Sequence record: PZ386947.1
Direction: 5' to 3' (one strand)
Length of the DNA: 64,000 bases
From: a phage
Part shown: positions 3,365-36,828 of the stretch, one piece after another
How the letters are laid out: every line of letters begins with the position of its first letter
How positions within the stretch are numbered: position 1 is the stretch's first letter
The notes under the pieces: generated by a model
What the model saw: only the letters and a program-made list of their open reading frames with translations
Told to the model about the DNA's origin: nothing
Databases searched by the model: none
Program-made: the position numbers and the translations under genes

Positions 3365-3733
3365 TTAATTACCAATCGTATATTTAGGAACGAGTTTCCA
3401 TTCATGTTTTTGTTTAAAAGAAATAACTCGGAAGTTATTAGTTAAATCTTTCATAAAAGTTCTTTGACCAGGAACGATTTCAATCAGTCCCCAATCTTCT
3501 AACAACCATGCAATCGAATCACGACGAACTTCATCTTCTTCTGTCATTTCAACCTGGCGACCATCCATACGAAGCATTTCTTTAAAATGAACGATATAGT
3601 ATAGTCCTTTTTTCTGAAGAATATGACAGGACTGATACAGAACTTTATCTTTATTATTAGCAATTCCCATACGAGTCAAAGTTTCTTTTACTTTCAGAAA
3701 ATCTTCAGGTTTTTTAAGAGTAATTTCAATCAT
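3365..3733 (-). CDS. regA: translational repressor RegA
   Basis: 122 aa; MIEITLKKPEDFLKVKETLTRMGIANNKDKVLYQSCHILQKKGLYYIVHFKEM... matches T4 RegA in sequence and position after gene 62. Confidence 0.95.
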   Translation of the reverse strand: MIEITLKKPEDFLKVKETLTRMGIANNKDKVLYQSCHILQKKGLYYIVHFKEMLRMDGRQVEMTEEDEVRRDSIAWLLEDWGLIEIVPGQRTFMKDLTNNFRVISFKQKHEWKLVPKYTIGN

Positions 3734-3734
3734 T

Positions 3735-4298
3735 TTACCATTCCAATGCTAGTTTTTTGAGTTGTTTCTGTTCTTTTACGTTCTTAGTCACTTCTTTCAA
3801 AAAATCATCCGTGACTAATCCTTTAAGTTCTTTTAATACTAAAGGTAGTTTTCCATTTTTAGTAAGAATTGATTTATAGTTAATTGCATCATTTGTATTA
3901 ACTTGATAACGCTTAGCAAGTAACTTAATAATCAATACTTCGGTGGAATCTTCAACTAGTTTTGCCCATTTACCATATCTTTTACCACGAGGAACTGCAG
4001 CCATTAGATAATTAAAATGAGCTTCATCACTTAATCCAGAACCGATTAAATTCATAGCATATACAGCTGGCATGCACTCTGGAAATTGTGATAATGCATT
4101 TTCAACCATGAATTTTGAATAATCTTTTTGAGCAATAGAGCATTTAGTTTTATTATTAATAGCTCCAATTATTTCAAAAAACTCATTTTCAGCTTTTTCT
4201 TTAAAAGAATCAGCAGCGGATTGGACAGCCGTCCAATCTTTTGAATACCAAGCAACTTGATGCTCGTTTAATTGAATATCATCTTCAAATAAGCTCAT
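3735..4298 (-). CDS. 62: clamp loader small subunit gp62
   Basis: ORF track 3735..4319; true start likely [22 protein letters not shown] (187 aa), overlapping the gene 44 stop. Confidence 0.93.
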
Positions 4299-31549: not shown

Positions 31550-31936
31550 TTATTCGAGGGAAAGAAGATACTTACTCTGGTAAAACATTCCAGTAATATC
31601 ATCTATCGTGCTTTGGATGGCTGGAGGCATTTCTTTATAAATGCTGTTAGATTGGTCTAGTATGTGATCAATCATTCTAATTGTGTCGGTAGGAAGTTTA
31701 CTAGCATCTGGAATTGAAGGTGTGTATTTTCTACCAGAATACCCCAAATATTGCTCACCAAATTTATCAATCAAATCTGGCAACTCGGAGAAAATAAAAT
31801 CGTATGCTTTGTGTCTAGCATAACTTTTAGTTTCAAAATGTGCAGAATGAAAATAAGCTTGTGCAGCCATTAATAAACCTAAGTATTCATCTGCCTTTGA
31901 AGGTTTTCCACTTTGTGAAAAGTCGCTGAATTTCAT
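31550..31936 (-). CDS. hypothetical protein (rI.-1-like)
   Basis: 128 aa ORF immediately downstream of rI. Confidence 0.55.
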
Positions 31937-32226
31937 TCAGTCTCCAATTTAATGTTCATAATTCTAGCGTATGATTGTGCCATCTCCGCGCCTCGCTCTA
32001 TACATTCAAAATCGGAAGAGCACGGGTCATTTTTATAAGTCGTTCGCATAAAACTATAGAACTGTTCAGATGATTCTACGCTTTTGTTTTCAAAAAGCAT
32101 ATAAACGTGTCTAATACCAGATTCCATAAATTTATCAAAATGAGGATCGACATTCGCTTCAATTGGTGGAGATAAAGCAAACGCTAATCCTAGCATGGCA
32201 AATAGTGCCGTTGCTTTTAAGGCCAT
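31933..32226 (-). CDS. rI: lysis inhibition regulator rI (antiholin)
   Basis: 97 aa with N-terminal signal-anchor MALKATALFAMLGLAFALSPPIEA; size and position as T4 rI. Confidence 0.85.
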   Translation of the reverse strand: MALKATALFAMLGLAFALSPPIEANVDPHFDKFMESGIRHVYMLFENKSVESSEQFYSFMRTTYKNDPCSSDFECIERGAEMAQSYARIMNIKLETE

Positions 32227-32493: not shown

Positions 32494-33075
32494 CTAACCG
32501 AGCTTTTTAGTTAATTCATTCCAATGTTTTCTACACAAAGAAACATAAATTTCATCACCAATACAGATTTGATTACCTTCTTTAACTGGTGTTCCATCTT
32601 CCATTAATCGAGCTGTCATAATAGCTTTTTTACCACAATGACAAACTGCCTTTAGTTCAATAAGTTTATCTGCAATCGCCAAAAGTTCTTTAGAACCTTC
32701 AAATAATTTTCCAGCGAAATCAGTCCTTAGCCCATAAGCCATAACAGGAACATTATATGTATCAACAATTCGACTTAATTGATGCACCTGTTTAGTTTTT
32801 AAAAACTGAGCTTCATCTACAAATACACAATGAATATCTTTTTGTGCTTCAGCCCATTTATAGAACTCAAAAATATCCATATCATCCGTAATAATATTCG
32901 CTTCCTGCTTAATTCCAATGCGAGAAACGACTTCACAGACAGAATCACGAGTATCAATAGCAGGCTTAAGAACTAATACACCCATTCCGCGTTCTTTATA
33001 ATTATGTGCAGCAGTCAAAAGAGAAGCAGATTTTCCAGCATTCATTGCTGCGTAAGTAAAAATTAAACTCGCCAT
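32494..33075 (-). CDS. tk: thymidine kinase
   Basis: 193 aa; P-loop AAMNAGKSASLL, zinc ribbon CHCG...C; matches T4 Tk. Confidence 0.95.
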   Translation of the reverse strand: MASLIFTYAAMNAGKSASLLTAAHNYKERGMGVLVLKPAIDTRDSVCEVVSRIGIKQEANIITDDMDIFEFYKWAEAQKDIHCVFVDEAQFLKTKQVHQLSRIVDTYNVPVMAYGLRTDFAGKLFEGSKELLAIADKLIELKAVCHCGKKAIMTARLMEDGTPVKEGNQICIGDEIYVSLCRKHWNELTKKLG

Positions 33076-33084
33076 ATCACCTTC

Positions 33085-33270
33085 TTAAAGCGTATTCACA
33101 TAAGCTATTAATTCGTTTTCTTTCTTATCAAACCGATCAGCAAATTCTTCTTGCTGATCGGGAGATAGCGGGCCGTATTCATCATAAAAGGTGTTTGCTT
33201 CTGTATGCTCATCTAGAAGTTCATGGATAAGCTCAAACAATTTATCTTTTTGTTCTTTACTCAGACTCAT
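33085..33270 (-). CDS. hypothetical acidic protein
   Basis: 61 aa ORF. Confidence 0.45.
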   Translation of the reverse strand: MSLSKEQKDKLFELIHELLDEHTEANTFYDEYGPLSPDQQEEFADRFDKKENELIAYVNTL

Positions 33271-33436
33271 ATATTAATTTCCAGGAGTTTTAAAATAATT
33301 CGCTTTTGCTTAAATATTTCCATAGTTAAATGACCAGTATCTTTTTGACCGATTCCAATGGCAAAACCTTTATTGACAGCGAGTTCAATTAAATTATCAA
33401 GCTCACGTAACACTTCATATTGTAACTCAAAACTAT

Positions 33437-33664
33437 TCATTTCGGTTTACCTTCTTTAACGAAATCAGGATAAGGATAAAATCCTGAATAAAATCCTTCA
33501 CCTTTATGATTGATGCATCCTTTATTAGAACAATAGCACCAATAATCGAAATCACAAGCCATTTCATCATTACATAAAGCAAAAACAACTGGCCATTCAC
33601 ACTTTTCGCAGTGGGCATTTTTAAGAATACTGGTTTGGCTCATAACCATGTAACCTTTAAACAA
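33437..33664 (-). CDS. cysteine-rich small protein (putative zinc-binding)
   Basis: 75 aa with CEKCEWP...C..C.C; the overlapping 33433..33618 frame is rejected. Confidence 0.5.
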   Translation of the reverse strand: MFKGYMVMSQTSILKNAHCEKCEWPVVFALCNDEMACDFDYWCYCSNKGCINHKGEGFYSGFYPYPDFVKEGKPK

Positions 33665-33852
33665 TATTCTTCTACATGTTGTTTACGACCTTTCCTATCA
33701 ATAAAGGTATATTCAACGAATGTTCCAATATAGTCTTTATCTACATCATGTGGACTATTAATTGGGCATTTAGTACGGCAAATGCGTTCCCATTGACGAA
33801 TAATTTCCACTTTGTTTTTAGGATCAAACGGATGCGGGTAATGTACTTTCAT
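33640..33852 (-). CDS. hypothetical protein
   Basis: 70 aa ORF. Confidence 0.45.
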   Translation of the reverse strand: MKVHYPHPFDPKNKVEIIRQWERICRTKCPINSPHDVDKDYIGTFVEYTFIDRKGRKQHVEEYCLKVTWL

Positions 33853-34303
33853 AATCCACCACTATTAAATCAATATCAGGAGTAAACATGTCGATTAATT
33901 TAGAAACCTTATCCCAATCGCCGCCAGCAATACCGCAACCTATGCGTGGAATGTAAATTACTGGTTTAAACAAAAGGGTTTCTGCCTGTAGATTTAATTC
34001 TATCATGCAGTTTACTAAAGCACCATAATCAAGATTAGGACCCGGTTCGTATTGTGTATACAGGTTATAGCATATACCAAATCCCGTAGGACTATGTTTA
34101 AAAACAATAGACATATCGCCTAATTTATCACGAGAACCGTACTCGGTAGTGGTTTTATCTATTTCTAAAATTTTGGGATAGGCTCTTGCTAATTGACCCG
34201 CTACGCCAGAGCCCATTGTGTGGAAGCAATTGCACCCGTGCGCAATAATATTACCTTGAAGAAATAGGGCGACAATATCGCCCTTGATATATTTTACAAT
34301 CAT
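33824..34303 (-). CDS. macro-domain protein (ADP-ribose binding/processing)
   Basis: 159 aa; macro-domain-like motifs IVKYIKGDI, AHGCNC, MGSGVAGQL, GCGIAGG. Confidence 0.7.
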   Translation of the reverse strand: MIVKYIKGDIVALFLQGNIIAHGCNCFHTMGSGVAGQLARAYPKILEIDKTTTEYGSRDKLGDMSIVFKHSPTGFGICYNLYTQYEPGPNLDYGALVNCMIELNLQAETLLFKPVIYIPRIGCGIAGGDWDKVSKLIDMFTPDIDLIVVDYESTLPASV

Positions 34304-34641
34304 CTAGTACTCAATCCTCGATTATAAGAATCTACTAAACGGTCAACCATTGAATGACAAGCGGCTTTATCTTTCTCCTCCGCAACTGAACATTCTAAAG
34401 TATTCCACTTTTTAGCATATCGTTTTAACAATGTATCATTTTTATATCTGCTTGATTTATCTCTTTCTCCGTCTTTATATGCATATATTAATTTCTGCGC
34501 AAATTCAGCTTGGCATGCTTTATTTTTCCCACAATAATCCGCGGCAGTACGGTTTACATACTCTCTAATTTCAGTATATGATGTATCTGCTAACGCAGAA
34601 AATGAAATTAATCCTATACATAAAACCAAAATTTTAGTCAT
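34300..34641 (-). CDS. secreted small protein
   Basis: 113 aa with signal peptide MTKILVLCIGLISFSALA. Confidence 0.5.
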   Translation of the reverse strand: MTKILVLCIGLISFSALADTSYTEIREYVNRTAADYCGKNKACQAEFAQKLIYAYKDGERDKSSRYKNDTLLKRYAKKWNTLECSVAEEKDKAACHSMVDRLVDSYNRGLSTR

Positions 34642-35179
34642 TTACTATTTCCAAAAGTTTATTATTTTTAAGGTAATTAGCCTTTTCTAGGACTTCAGAA
34701 GCATATTTAGAACCAGCTTTAACATTCCATCCCGAATTATAAGAGGATATTGCTTTTCTTATATCGCCCTTATGTATATTTAACCAATAAGAAAGTTCAA
34801 TGTACGCCCAGGAAGCTGAATTGGATCGTTTATTCAACATTCTTTTTATTTCAGCATCGGTCATATTATAACCAAGTTCCTTAACTCTTGCTCGCATAGT
34901 AGGCAAATAATTTTGGAACATTCCATAAGCGTGATGCTTTGGTTTAGATTTTAAATTAACTCCGCCAGAGCTTTCTTGCCATAAAATAGCAGCCATTATA
35001 TGACCTAATCCGCTCTTGTGGATATTTTTGTGTGTTTTATATTTTCCATCCTTAGAAAATTGTTCCCCGAATTGATACGCGTAACGCATGTTATCGAGTT
35101 GGACATTACTGAAAGTATGCTCGGAGCTATGTGCCATCATTGAAATGGCCAATAGACCAGCGAGTAGTGCTTTTCTCAT
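34634..35179 (-). CDS. secreted lytic transglycosylase-like protein (SLT domain)
   Basis: 181 aa; signal peptide MRKALLAGLLAISMMAHS; SLT-like catalytic region WQESSGG...AYGMFQ. Confidence 0.6.
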   Translation of the reverse strand: MRKALLAGLLAISMMAHSSEHTFSNVQLDNMRYAYQFGEQFSKDGKYKTHKNIHKSGLGHIMAAILWQESSGGVNLKSKPKHHAYGMFQNYLPTMRARVKELGYNMTDAEIKRMLNKRSNSASWAYIELSYWLNIHKGDIRKAISSYNSGWNVKAGSKYASEVLEKANYLKNNKLLEIVND

Positions 35180-35186
35180 GCTTACC

Positions 35187-35648
35187 TCATTGAGTTTTAA
35201 TTACTGCTTTAGAAGCCTTTCCTGGTAAACGACGACTGTTAATAATTGCCATCCTACATTGAAGTGACGGGTCTTTGAACTTCGCATTAGGTTTACAAAC
35301 TGTAAATCCAAGCCAAAGATTTCCATCTGTGATTTCTAAACGTCCAGGACGGTATTCAACCCCATCAATAAAATCCTCGTCAATGTCAGGACGCGGAGGC
35401 ATACTCAGGAATTCATTAACTTCTAAAACATGGTCTTTTATTTTGTGGAATAATTCAAAAACATATGTCTCATCAATCTCCCGTTGAATTGCACGATCAA
35501 GAAGATGCTGAGAATATTTTAGATGAAACGATGAGACCCCTGCTGCTTTTGATGCCTCACGAATCTCATTGTTAATTTGACGAAACTCCGACTCAAAGTG
35601 ACGACGAAGCTTATTTCGACGGATAAAAACTTCTGTGTTGATAGTCAT
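35187..35648 (-). CDS. regB: endoribonuclease RegB
   Basis: 153 aa; MTINTEVFIRRNKLRRHFESEFRQINNEIREASKAAGVSSFHLKYSQHLLDR... matches T4 RegB. Confidence 0.93.
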   Translation of the reverse strand: MTINTEVFIRRNKLRRHFESEFRQINNEIREASKAAGVSSFHLKYSQHLLDRAIQREIDETYVFELFHKIKDHVLEVNEFLSMPPRPDIDEDFIDGVEYRPGRLEITDGNLWLGFTVCKPNAKFKDPSLQCRMAIINSRRLPGKASKAVIKTQ

Positions 35649-35674
35649 GTTATTCTCCTCTTAACTGATAGAAA

Positions 35675-35704
35675 AATTATACCACAGTCAAGAGGAAAAG
35701 TAAA
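35675..35704 (-). promoter_or_regulatory. T4-type early promoter upstream of regB
   Basis: Minus strand TTTACT, 17 nt, TATAAT. Confidence 0.6.
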
Positions 35705-35707
35705 CAG

Positions 35708-36028
35708 TTATTCTTTAAATCTAATCAATTTATTCATAGACTTTGAAACTTCTGCACGGACCTCATGAAGGTTTTTGAGCTGTTCAAGACGTTGCTCATA
35801 GTAAGCAATTTCATCTTCTTCAAGACAGTCCTGTGAATCTTCTTTAAGATAACGTGCATAGTCCTGAAAAGCTTTACGGACTACTTCCTGGAAGTCATCA
35901 AGACTTTGAATTTTCTTAGGAGCAGCAGACACACGACGAGGGGCAGTATAATACTCATAACCAAACCCTGCGCTTAATTGAGCCATTAGTATTTTTCCTC
36001 TGGTTGGAACACAGCACGACAAGCCCAC
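35708..36028 (-). CDS. hypothetical protein
   Basis: 106 aa ORF. Confidence 0.5.
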
Positions 36029-36288
36029 ATACTGGCTTCTTTGAGTTTCGTTTTAGCAATAGCTAAATGATCGAGGCTTTCAGCGTAATTCTTCGCGAGT
36101 TCAAAGTCTTCGCAATTATCTAGTGCTTCCCAGAATTCATCATATAAAGCATCAAAGATAAGTCCTAAACGAACTTCAGCGTCTTTAATAGCATTTACTT
36201 TACCGATTTTTTCGTCGGTATGTGGCTTATAACCTTTAATATCTTCAATCATATTTGACTTCCTCACCAGTACATAAATCGTATTCAA
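35986..36288 (-). CDS. hypothetical protein
   Basis: 100 aa ORF. Confidence 0.5.
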
Positions 36289-36466
36289 CTAAACGAATAG
36301 GTTCATGAATGCCATATCCTTGAACAGAAATTTCTGTCGTAGGATAAATTCCATTAATATCACCCATGTTCCATGCTTCGTTAAATTGCTGTTCGCCTGA
36401 ATTACTAAACCACTCGGCGAAAGCATTTAGCACATCTTCAGAACCTTCAATAATTATCTTTGCCAT
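36245..36466 (-). CDS. hypothetical protein
   Basis: 73 aa ORF. Confidence 0.45.
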   Translation of the reverse strand: MAKIIIEGSEDVLNAFAEWFSNSGEQQFNEAWNMGDINGIYPTTEISVQGYGIHEPIRLVEYDLCTGEEVKYD

Positions 36467-36828
36467 TACAAACTCTCGGTGAAGGTACGAGCGATAACGT
36501 CGCGCTGCTGTTCCGGAGTCAGAGAGTTAAAGCGAACTGCATAACCGGATACACGGATGGTCAGCTGCGGATATTTTTCCGGATGCTTAACTGCATCTTC
36601 CAGAGTTTCACGACGCAGAACGTTAACGTTCAGGTGTTGACCACCTTCAATTTTAACTGTAGGCTGTTGCTCAATTTCAATTTCACGGGCATGCAAACCA
36701 TAGAAAATTTCTGGGTCTACAAAAGAGTCCTCTTTAAAGGTTTTAGAGACAATAATTCGTGCTTGAATACCATCTTCAAAATAAATAGTACCTTTATGTG
36801 TGCCTTCAAGAATTTGATATGCTTTCAT
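36466..36828 (-). CDS. autonomous glycyl radical cofactor (GrcA/YfiD-like)
   Basis: 120 aa; C-terminal 60 aa [59 protein letters not shown] carries the PFL-type glycyl radical motif RVSGY. The 3' half of the gene (about 36466-36660) is visibly more GC-rich than its surroundings. Confidence 0.85.

Follow-up and report, generated by a model that had tools for sequence, protein, structure and literature searches.

We describe here two overlapping genes in a 64,000-nucleotide stretch of phage DNA (sequence record PZ386947.1; hereafter the window) which are the counterparts of genes vs.1 and vs of phage T4. The explanation that we favour, with moderate confidence, makes Vs.1 a lytic transglycosylase of the periplasm and Vs, annotated as a "valyl-tRNA synthetase modifier", its co-exported regulator. 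A preliminary description of the window had pointed to two adjacent open reading frames (ORFs) at positions 34300-35179, and we found them at exactly these limits on the minus strand, sharing 8 nt: one of 181 aa (35179..34634) and one of 113 aa (34641..34300). ORF coding across positions 33000-36500 lies on the minus strand, and the plus-strand ORFs inside 34300-35179 measure 44-46 aa. The pair, which the preliminary description did not identify, is T4 vs.1 and vs. The 181-aa ORF has 100% amino acid identity with T4 Vs.1 (ORF 61.4, UniProt P13311), which carries the RefSeq label "hypothetical protein" in T4, and the 113-aa ORF is T4 Vs (ORF 60.9, P13310), with 96-97% identity to the 115-aa form and the two-residue difference located in the signal peptide. 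At the DNA level the identity is 100% with Shigella phage CM8, a Tequatrovirus, and 95-99% with several hundred phages of the T4 type.

Vs.1 matched the Pfam SLT family PF01464 over residues 61-154 with a score of 25.1 bits (E=1.4e-5), above the curated gathering cut-off of 21.3, and the same family was matched by 29 of 32 Vs.1 homologues (best E=1.3e-7), no other family being matched. Family-1 transglycosylases are defined by four motifs, and we looked at their conservation in an alignment of the 32 homologues, which extends down to 40% identity. Motif I (WQESSGG) contains the putative catalytic Glu69 followed by Ser70; here W67, E69 and G73 are invariant while S70 and S71 are conserved in at least 90% of the sequences. 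Motif II (AYGMFQ) has invariant G86, F88 and Q89, and in motifs III and IV Y147, N148, G150 and Y159 are invariant, position 146 being S or A. The preliminary description had noted a resemblance of WQESSGG...AYGMFQ to soluble lytic transglycosylases, and the Pfam score places this resemblance beyond chance. Profile alignment with hhalign put E69 on Glu64 of MltE, the residue altered in the MltE-E64Q mutant of PDB 4hjy, and on the "QES" of Slt70, with AYGMFQ standing opposite AIGLMQ (MltE) and SGLMQ (Slt70); the statistics of these alignments are weak, each template being a single sequence.

A search of solved-structure sequences with phmmer gave chance centrin matches alone, and the Vs.1 alignment profile returned a weak match to a g-type lysozyme (E=0.3) that covers the motif III stretch. 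NCBIfam had no match for either Vs.1 or Vs. Since sequence searches against solved structures were unhelpful, a comparison of folds was needed. An AlphaFold2 (AF2) model of Vs.1 built from the 32-sequence alignment (predicted local distance difference test score, pLDDT, 88.9; predicted template modelling score, pTM, 0.83) has a goose-lysozyme-like, all-alpha fold in which E69 sits at the C-terminal end of the helix formed by residues 59-70. The top Foldseek matches of this model in the PDB all belong to GH23 (MltD, Slt and a GH23 chitinase), with weak E-values. Unlike the g-type lysozymes, which have a second acidic residue, the 32 sequences contain no invariant Asp or Glu after E69; this indirectly favours a transglycosylase over a hydrolase and is consistent with a predicted non-hydrolytic product ending in 1,6-anhydro-N-acetylmuramic acid (1,6-anhydroMurNAc). 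The predicted mature protein (residues 19-181) has 163 aa, a mass of 18.8 kDa, a pI of 9.65 and no Cys, and it is basic in every lineage. Taken together we consider it very likely that Vs.1 is an exported and active GH23 enzyme.

The SLT reading of T4 vs.1 is not new. Nolan et al. (2006, PMC1524935) listed a marginal SLT match for vs.1 in 6 of 6 T4-like genomes, and cited earlier PSI-BLAST matches in the 2003 T4 genome review. Several Vs.1 homologues are named "Transglycosylase SLT domain-containing protein" in UniRef. What our analysis adds is the conserved, coupled and apparently secreted vs.1-vs pair and, with it, doubt on the textbook label of Vs as a "ValRS modifier" (ValRS, valyl-tRNA synthetase). 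In GenBank the homologues of vs.1 frequently carry erroneous or discordant names, such as "endoribonuclease RegB", "site-specific RNA endonuclease", "putative RegB protein" and "C-type lysozyme/alpha-lactalbumin family protein", and the CM8 homologues of vs.7 and vs.8 are likewise labelled RegB. The cases concerned are our locus L001 (MK962750, 3335-3880 and 5536-6401) and our matches H23, H33, H40 and H51. It looks as if the name of the neighbouring regB gene had spilled over.

Signal peptides were read by a rule of thumb that asks for a positive n-region, an h-region of 7-15 residues and small residues at -3 and -1. By sequence, both proteins begin with what looks like a cleavable Sec type I signal peptide of this kind, as had been proposed for them. 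In Vs.1 the residues RK precede a 13-residue h-region, ALLAGLLAISMMA, and a predicted cleavage site, AHS|S; in Vs a K precedes ILVLCIGLISF and the predicted site is ALA|D. The basic-then-hydrophobic N-terminus is kept in 32 of 32 Vs.1 homologues despite free sequence drift, and a signal-peptide-like N-terminus is found in all 23 full-length Vs representatives; such family-wide conservation is stronger evidence for export than the rule-of-thumb reads themselves. When a crude N-terminus scan was applied to 110 non-overlapping ORFs of the window, seven were flagged, and short h-regions of the cleavable type were present in rI, vs and vs.1 alone. The 13-residue h-region of Vs.1, with a predicted cleavage site behind it, is too short to be an anchor of the signal-anchor-release (SAR) type.

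The four Cys of Vs (C37, C43, C84 and C95) lie in the predicted mature part. Exactly four Cys past residue 25 occur in 23 of 23 full-length Vs representatives; C37, C43 and C95 form invariant columns in alignments across the diverged family, and C84 is shifted by a three-column gap. One clade of Vs proteins has a lipobox (L-S-G-C) in place of the A-x-A site, MKKLFVLLVVFALSGC|K, which provides independent evidence that the family is exported. Vs matched phrog_1256 (E=5e-40), and the precomputed Pfam family PF26829 is found on all Vs homologues; the Pfam set that we searched, in which PF26829 is absent, gave noise only. The AF2 model of Vs, from a seven-sequence alignment, is poor (pLDDT 61) and has four helices with the Cys at two hairpin turns. 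Sequence prediction, by way of the signal peptide, the four Cys and the lipobox clade, does not place Vs in the cytoplasm, and the same features sit badly with the label "ValRS modifier". That Vs is exported appears highly probable. The N-terminally His-tagged full-length protein was insoluble in the E. coli cytoplasm (PMC8076793), which agrees, if only weakly, with a secreted protein that forms disulfides.

The two genes stay together over large evolutionary distances. A profile search with Vs.1 returned 49 viral loci, 48 of them T4-like, and the pair is present in all 48 T4-like loci as well as at our loci L003 and L004. A first homology search with Vs had found six close clusters only. At two diverged vs.1 loci (40% and 53% Vs.1 identity) a PF26829 gene lies directly downstream, each time with a signal peptide and four Cys. 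The downstream ORF of the 48 T4-like loci begins at the vs.1 stop and is 104-122 aa long where intact; its N-terminus is hydrophobic, and its mature part as a rule contains four Cys, fewer being found in two truncated copies (L020, 85 aa; L038, 65 aa). Of these downstream ORFs 37 differ in sequence, and a hidden Markov model (HMM) built from T4-type Vs only picks up 31 of them; an exhaustive Vs HMM search of 1.84 billion representatives gave 25 members, all of 77-134 aa. A Vs-family gene follows vs.1 in every Straboviridae locus examined, and the two genes stay paired in different subfamilies, even where Vs identity has fallen to about 20% and the other neighbours have changed. In Acinetobacter phage Mokit (Twarogvirinae) the two homologues are adjacent; in Escherichia phage Lw1 (Pseudotevenvirus) one gene stands between them. 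The Lw1 intervening gene encodes a non-secreted protein of 133 aa, and the Lw1 Vs.1 homologue (L059, 1791-2438) has 215 aa, its signal peptide being separated from the conserved domain by an extra segment of about 35 residues. The distance from the vs.1 stop to the vs start was -8, -4, -1, 0, +2 or +3 nt in all 35 loci of diverged phages in which it was measured, and no good Shine-Dalgarno sequence was seen for vs, from which we infer that the two genes are translationally coupled.

The preliminary description had called an enzyme of this kind unusual, which is overstated: tblastn found Vs.1 homologues in 2046 of 50,697 phage records (about 4%). By the same method no homologue was found on 72,556 plasmids, and a pattern scan of 185,579 bacterial species genomes, sensitive to close relatives only, gave no relative of Vs.1. 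One further candidate (L053, 32% identity), whose SLT domain lies in a larger ORF that runs off its contig, was dropped as it is no Vs.1 orthologue.

As far as the T4 orthologues go, the pair was rightly placed among early genes: both vs.1 and vs fall into the early RNA class and the middle protein class, and both proteins were detected by mass spectrometry (PMC9697503, supplement). We took fitness figures from the HIDEN-SEQ transposon study of T4 (bioRxiv 10.1101/2025.11.20.689424, Data S8), in which both genes were scored non-essential. Mean insertion counts in LB were 26.6 for vs and 22.6 for vs.1, compared with 179 for regB, 265 for vs.4, 290 for tk.4 and 652 for vs.3, that is approximately 7- to 29-fold below these four sampled neighbours. 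Upon the shift to M9 glucose vs was the strongest depleted gene (log2 fold change, log2FC, -2.19), and a clean vs deletion gave a plaque defect and poor plating on M9 glucose minimal medium. The similar cost of both genes fits a shared function, and the larger defect on loss of vs alone is what a model of restraint predicts; this support is suggestive only, as insertions in vs.1 could be polar on vs. In the same data insertions in regB become about twice as frequent in M9 glucose, and the text of the HIDEN-SEQ paper does not mention vs.1.

For the scheme that we propose we infer export and cleavage, activity and product, the interaction of Vs with Vs.1 and their physiological role. Vs.1 would be made from early transcripts as a 181-aa precursor, exported by Sec and freed of its 18-residue signal peptide to give a soluble, basic, single-domain family-1 (GH23) transglycosylase in the periplasm. 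Glu69 would protonate the beta-1,4 bond between N-acetylmuramic acid (MurNAc) and N-acetylglucosamine (GlcNAc), whereupon the C6 hydroxyl of MurNAc would close the 1,6-anhydro ring. Its action may be a limited and non-lytic remodelling of the sacculus from early to middle infection, lysis being the task of endolysin e. Vs would be translated in a coupled manner and exported along with the enzyme; we picture it as small, helical and probably held by two disulfides, predicted as C37-C43 and C84-C95. It would most likely be the bound envelope regulator of Vs.1, either inhibiting the enzyme or serving as a subunit that targets or stabilises it. A physical association of the two in their action we can put forward tentatively, at slightly below an even chance. 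It is possible, yet rather doubtful, that the "ValRS modifier" family as a whole is a Sec-exported, disulfide-stapled partner of Vs.1, lipid-anchored in one clade and made in a fixed ratio by coupling, that restrains or directs the enzyme. If so, the minimal-medium defect of vs would reflect unregulated or misdirected wall cleavage and not altered aminoacylation, and the 50-year-old assignment of the ValRS factor to ORF 60.9 would be wrong or describe a secondary association. Candidate physiological roles are wall remodelling in slow-growing cells, preparation of lysis, and exclusion.

Several points weigh against this scheme. The product of vs is said, in the classical papers, to bind the cytoplasmic ValRS and to act in vivo, which speaks against an exported Vs. 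Our literature search found no experimental work on Vs.1, be it on enzyme activity, localisation or interaction, and two T-even-related toxicity-screen papers do not mention vs.1. The signal peptides are rule-of-thumb reads, and the Cys of Vs could in principle be metal ligands rather than form disulfides. Outside Straboviridae, SLT homologues occur without a Vs partner in Det7 (gp70, Ackermannviridae) and in the Felixounavirus finno (finno_46), suggesting that the enzyme can work alone. These two proteins (Salmonella phage Det7, L057, 1953-2570; Escherichia phage finno, L058, 2001-2549) are about 31% identical to Vs.1 and have a signal peptide and 3-4 Cys. In M9 glucose the depletion of vs.1 (log2FC -0.87, p=0.0055) is non-significant after correction (adjusted p 0.155). 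Foldseek with the low-confidence Vs model found non-significant helical bundles and no inhibitor fold, and a homology between Vs and Spackle was rejected, as the hhalign alignment covers the signal peptides alone. By hhalign, Foldseek and Pfam Vs has no sequence or fold likeness to the known inhibitor families Ivy, PliC/MliC, PliG, Spackle and Tsi. An inhibitor-like role of Vs would be an analogy.

One may accept an exported transglycosylase and still suppose that Vs is a cytoplasmic binder of ValRS, that the adjacency of the genes reflects the packing of T4 early genes and that the N-terminus of Vs is unused or partly used. The label is carried by RefSeq, PHROGs and Pfam PF26829, classical work of Marchin and Neidhardt is cited in PMC8076793, the vs deletion shows its phenotype in minimal medium, where aminoacylation might matter, and start/stop overlaps are frequent in this gene block, vs and tk.4 sharing an ATGA as well. 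We regard this as unlikely, however, in view of the export features common to all full-length Vs members and the lipobox clade, of a pairing that outlasts most of the sequence identity of Vs, and of the original sequence record X04567, in which the gene is named ORF 60.9 only. The transglycosylase reading could be set aside by taking Vs.1 for a goose-type hydrolytic muramidase or for a catalytically silent peptidoglycan binder, and one GenBank homologue does bear the name of a C-type lysozyme; with the four transglycosylase motifs invariant and no conserved second acid after Glu69 this seems very improbable, and a silent binder would not be expected to keep Glu69 invariant.

The remaining alternatives concern what a periplasmic Vs.1 would do. 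It could be an auxiliary lysis enzyme, pre-positioned in the periplasm and possibly held in check by Vs, that weakens the sacculus and so speeds holin-triggered lysis by e or the collapse of lysis inhibition. In the window and in three diverged lineages (Table 1) the pair is followed, at a distance of 0.3-2.5 kb, by the rI antiholin gene, whose own product is periplasmic and has a signal peptide. The finno homologue lies between the rIIB and spanin genes and is annotated "putative lysin", and among the PHROG matches are families of endolysins and of lytic tail proteins. These proximities are a weak hint of lysis control: synteny in T4-like phages is generally conserved, and the closeness of rI is therefore weak evidence. 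T4 e mutants do not lyse, and therefore Vs.1 is insufficient for lysis. Transcription in T4 is early and not late, the h-region with its cleavage site speaks against a SAR-type anchor, and Vs.1 lacks the late expression, the holin or spanin linkage and the lysis requirement of a phage endolysin, its neighbours being regB, vs and tk.4. Abedon's review of lysis inhibition mentions neither the star genes nor a transglycosylase. We hold an auxiliary lysis role to be quite improbable. Still fainter is the prospect, raised in the preliminary description as superinfection exclusion, that an early wall change made by Vs.1, with or without Vs, blocks later phages or lysis from without alongside Imm and Spackle. 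Vs.1 is predicted to be periplasmic and is made early, and T4 Spackle, a small secreted helical protein, acts against the gp5 lysozyme (PMC7650644); on the other side the sequences of Vs and Spackle are unrelated, and cleavage of glycan would be expected to ease penetration and not to block it.

Coordinates of the pair and of its surroundings are collected in Table 1. Upstream of vs.1 lies the gene for a 153-aa RegB endoribonuclease (Pfam REGB_T4, E=1e-68), and downstream of vs follow a macro-domain protein and then thymidine kinase, in the order regB-vs.1-vs-tk.4-...-tk as in T4. The GAGG in front of vs.1 was read directly from the sequence; in the T4 record X04567 the equivalent position is annotated as an rRNA binding site. 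The promoter-like site upstream of regB comes from a consensus scan alone, in which promoter-like sites of this region were no more numerous than in shuffles; it is likely to be the early promoter of regB-vs.1-vs-tk.4. The macro-domain ORF (159 aa; Pfam Macro, E=1e-7) corresponds to T4 tk.4, to which the HIDEN-SEQ preprint (bioRxiv 10.1101/2025.11.20.689424) recently gave the name AdfM as a factor against DarTG2. About 20 nt into the 5' end of tk.4, right after the vs stop, the sequence AGGGCGA-TATTG-TCGCCCT forms a perfect hairpin rich in G+C, and a tract rich in T comes after it. On the coding (minus) strand this resembles a terminator, and it could serve transcription attenuation or mRNA stabilisation after vs. 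Further upstream, a 120-aa ORF labelled "pyruvate formate-lyase" in CM8 is a homologue of vs.6, for which a strong glycyl-radical domain match has been described in T4 (Nolan 2006, PMC1524935), consistent with a small spare glycyl-radical module.

Table 1. Positions of the vs.1-vs pair, its sequence elements and associated features (window coordinates unless a locus is named).
Feature	Position	Strand	Description
vs.1 coding sequence	34634..35179	-	181 aa; predicted periplasmic family-1 (GH23) lytic transglycosylase precursor
vs coding sequence	34300..34641	-	113 aa; T4 ORF 60.9, Pfam PF26829, "valyl-tRNA synthetase modifier"; helical, predicted to be secreted, 95 aa when mature
vs.1/vs overlap, 8 nt, ATGACTAA	34634..34641	-	vs ATG within vs.1 3' end
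Vs.1 signal peptide, residues 1-18	35126..35179	-	MRKALLAGLLAISMMAHS then SEHTF; predicted cleavage AHS|S
Vs signal peptide, residues 1-18	34588..34641	-	MTKILVLCIGLISFSALA then DTSY; predicted cleavage ALA|D
Motif I WQESSGG, residues 67-73	34961..34981	-	putative catalytic Glu69 (34973-34975), then Ser70
Motif II AYGMFQ, residues 84-89	34913..34930	-	equivalent to G-L-M-Q of Slt70/MltE
Motif III S-Y-N-S-G, residues 146-150, and motif IV Tyr159	34703..34744	-	motif III equivalent to A-Y-N-x-G
Shine-Dalgarno GAGG	35185..35188	-	6-9 nt 5' of vs.1 ATG
Sigma-70-like promoter TTTACT-17-TATAAT, TG-extended	35676..35704	-	5' of regB; likely early promoter
tk.4	33824-34303	-	ATGA overlap with vs stop
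Hairpin	34266-34284	both	terminator-like on the minus strand
vs.6 homologue	36466-36828	-	120 aa
rI	31933-32226	-	antiholin gene
rI in diverged lineages	L002 4834-5106; L004 6114-6404; L060 3545-3847		
Lipobox Vs clade	L035, L036, L038, L039, L050 at about 3549-3875		L-S-G-C instead of A-x-A

If our interpretation is correct Vs.1 would be a third, uncharacterised murein-cleaving enzyme of the best-studied phage, with a measurable fitness cost on disruption. The secretory features of Vs and the coupling of its gene to vs.1 would offer an alternative explanation for the sole known vs phenotype, poor growth in minimal medium. Should Vs indeed regulate Vs.1, the two would form the second T4 pair of an enzyme and a periplasmic regulator after gp5/Spackle, and Vs would be a new kind of transglycosylase-binding protein.

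Compared with known systems, the window shows the same gene pair in the same order as its close relative T4, with no substantive difference. Two T4 enzymes, endolysin e and the gp5 tail lysozyme, cut the same glycosidic bond of murein and are phage-encoded like Vs.1, but they belong to GH24, act by hydrolysis, lack a signal peptide and are made late or carried in the virion, whereas Vs.1 is assigned to GH23, would act by ring closure and is early. Work on T4 usually reckons with these two alone, and the Spackle structure paper (PMC7650644) counts e and gene 5 only as T4 lysozyme genes. Against the E. coli enzymes Slt70, MltE/EmtA, MltF, MltC and MltD the identity of Vs.1 is 13-19%; in contrast to these family-1 proteins Vs.1 is a bare, phage-encoded catalytic domain with a conserved N-terminal extension of 40 residues, without lipid anchor, superhelical or LysM domains, and its motif II reads G-M-F-Q where theirs reads G-L-M-Q. 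Small specialised transglycosylases such as VirB1, IpgF, IagB and P19 belong to trans-envelope machines. With enzymes of this type, such as EtgA of a type III system, Vs.1 has architecture and fold in common, but vs.1 lies outside secretion, pilus or flagellar clusters, in a phage early region, and we know of no machine that it would serve. The gp5/Spackle pair and type VI effector/immunity pairs such as Tse3-Tsi3 offer an analogy for an enzyme with its own periplasmic regulator, with the difference that Vs.1 and Vs would both be exported into the envelope of the same cell.

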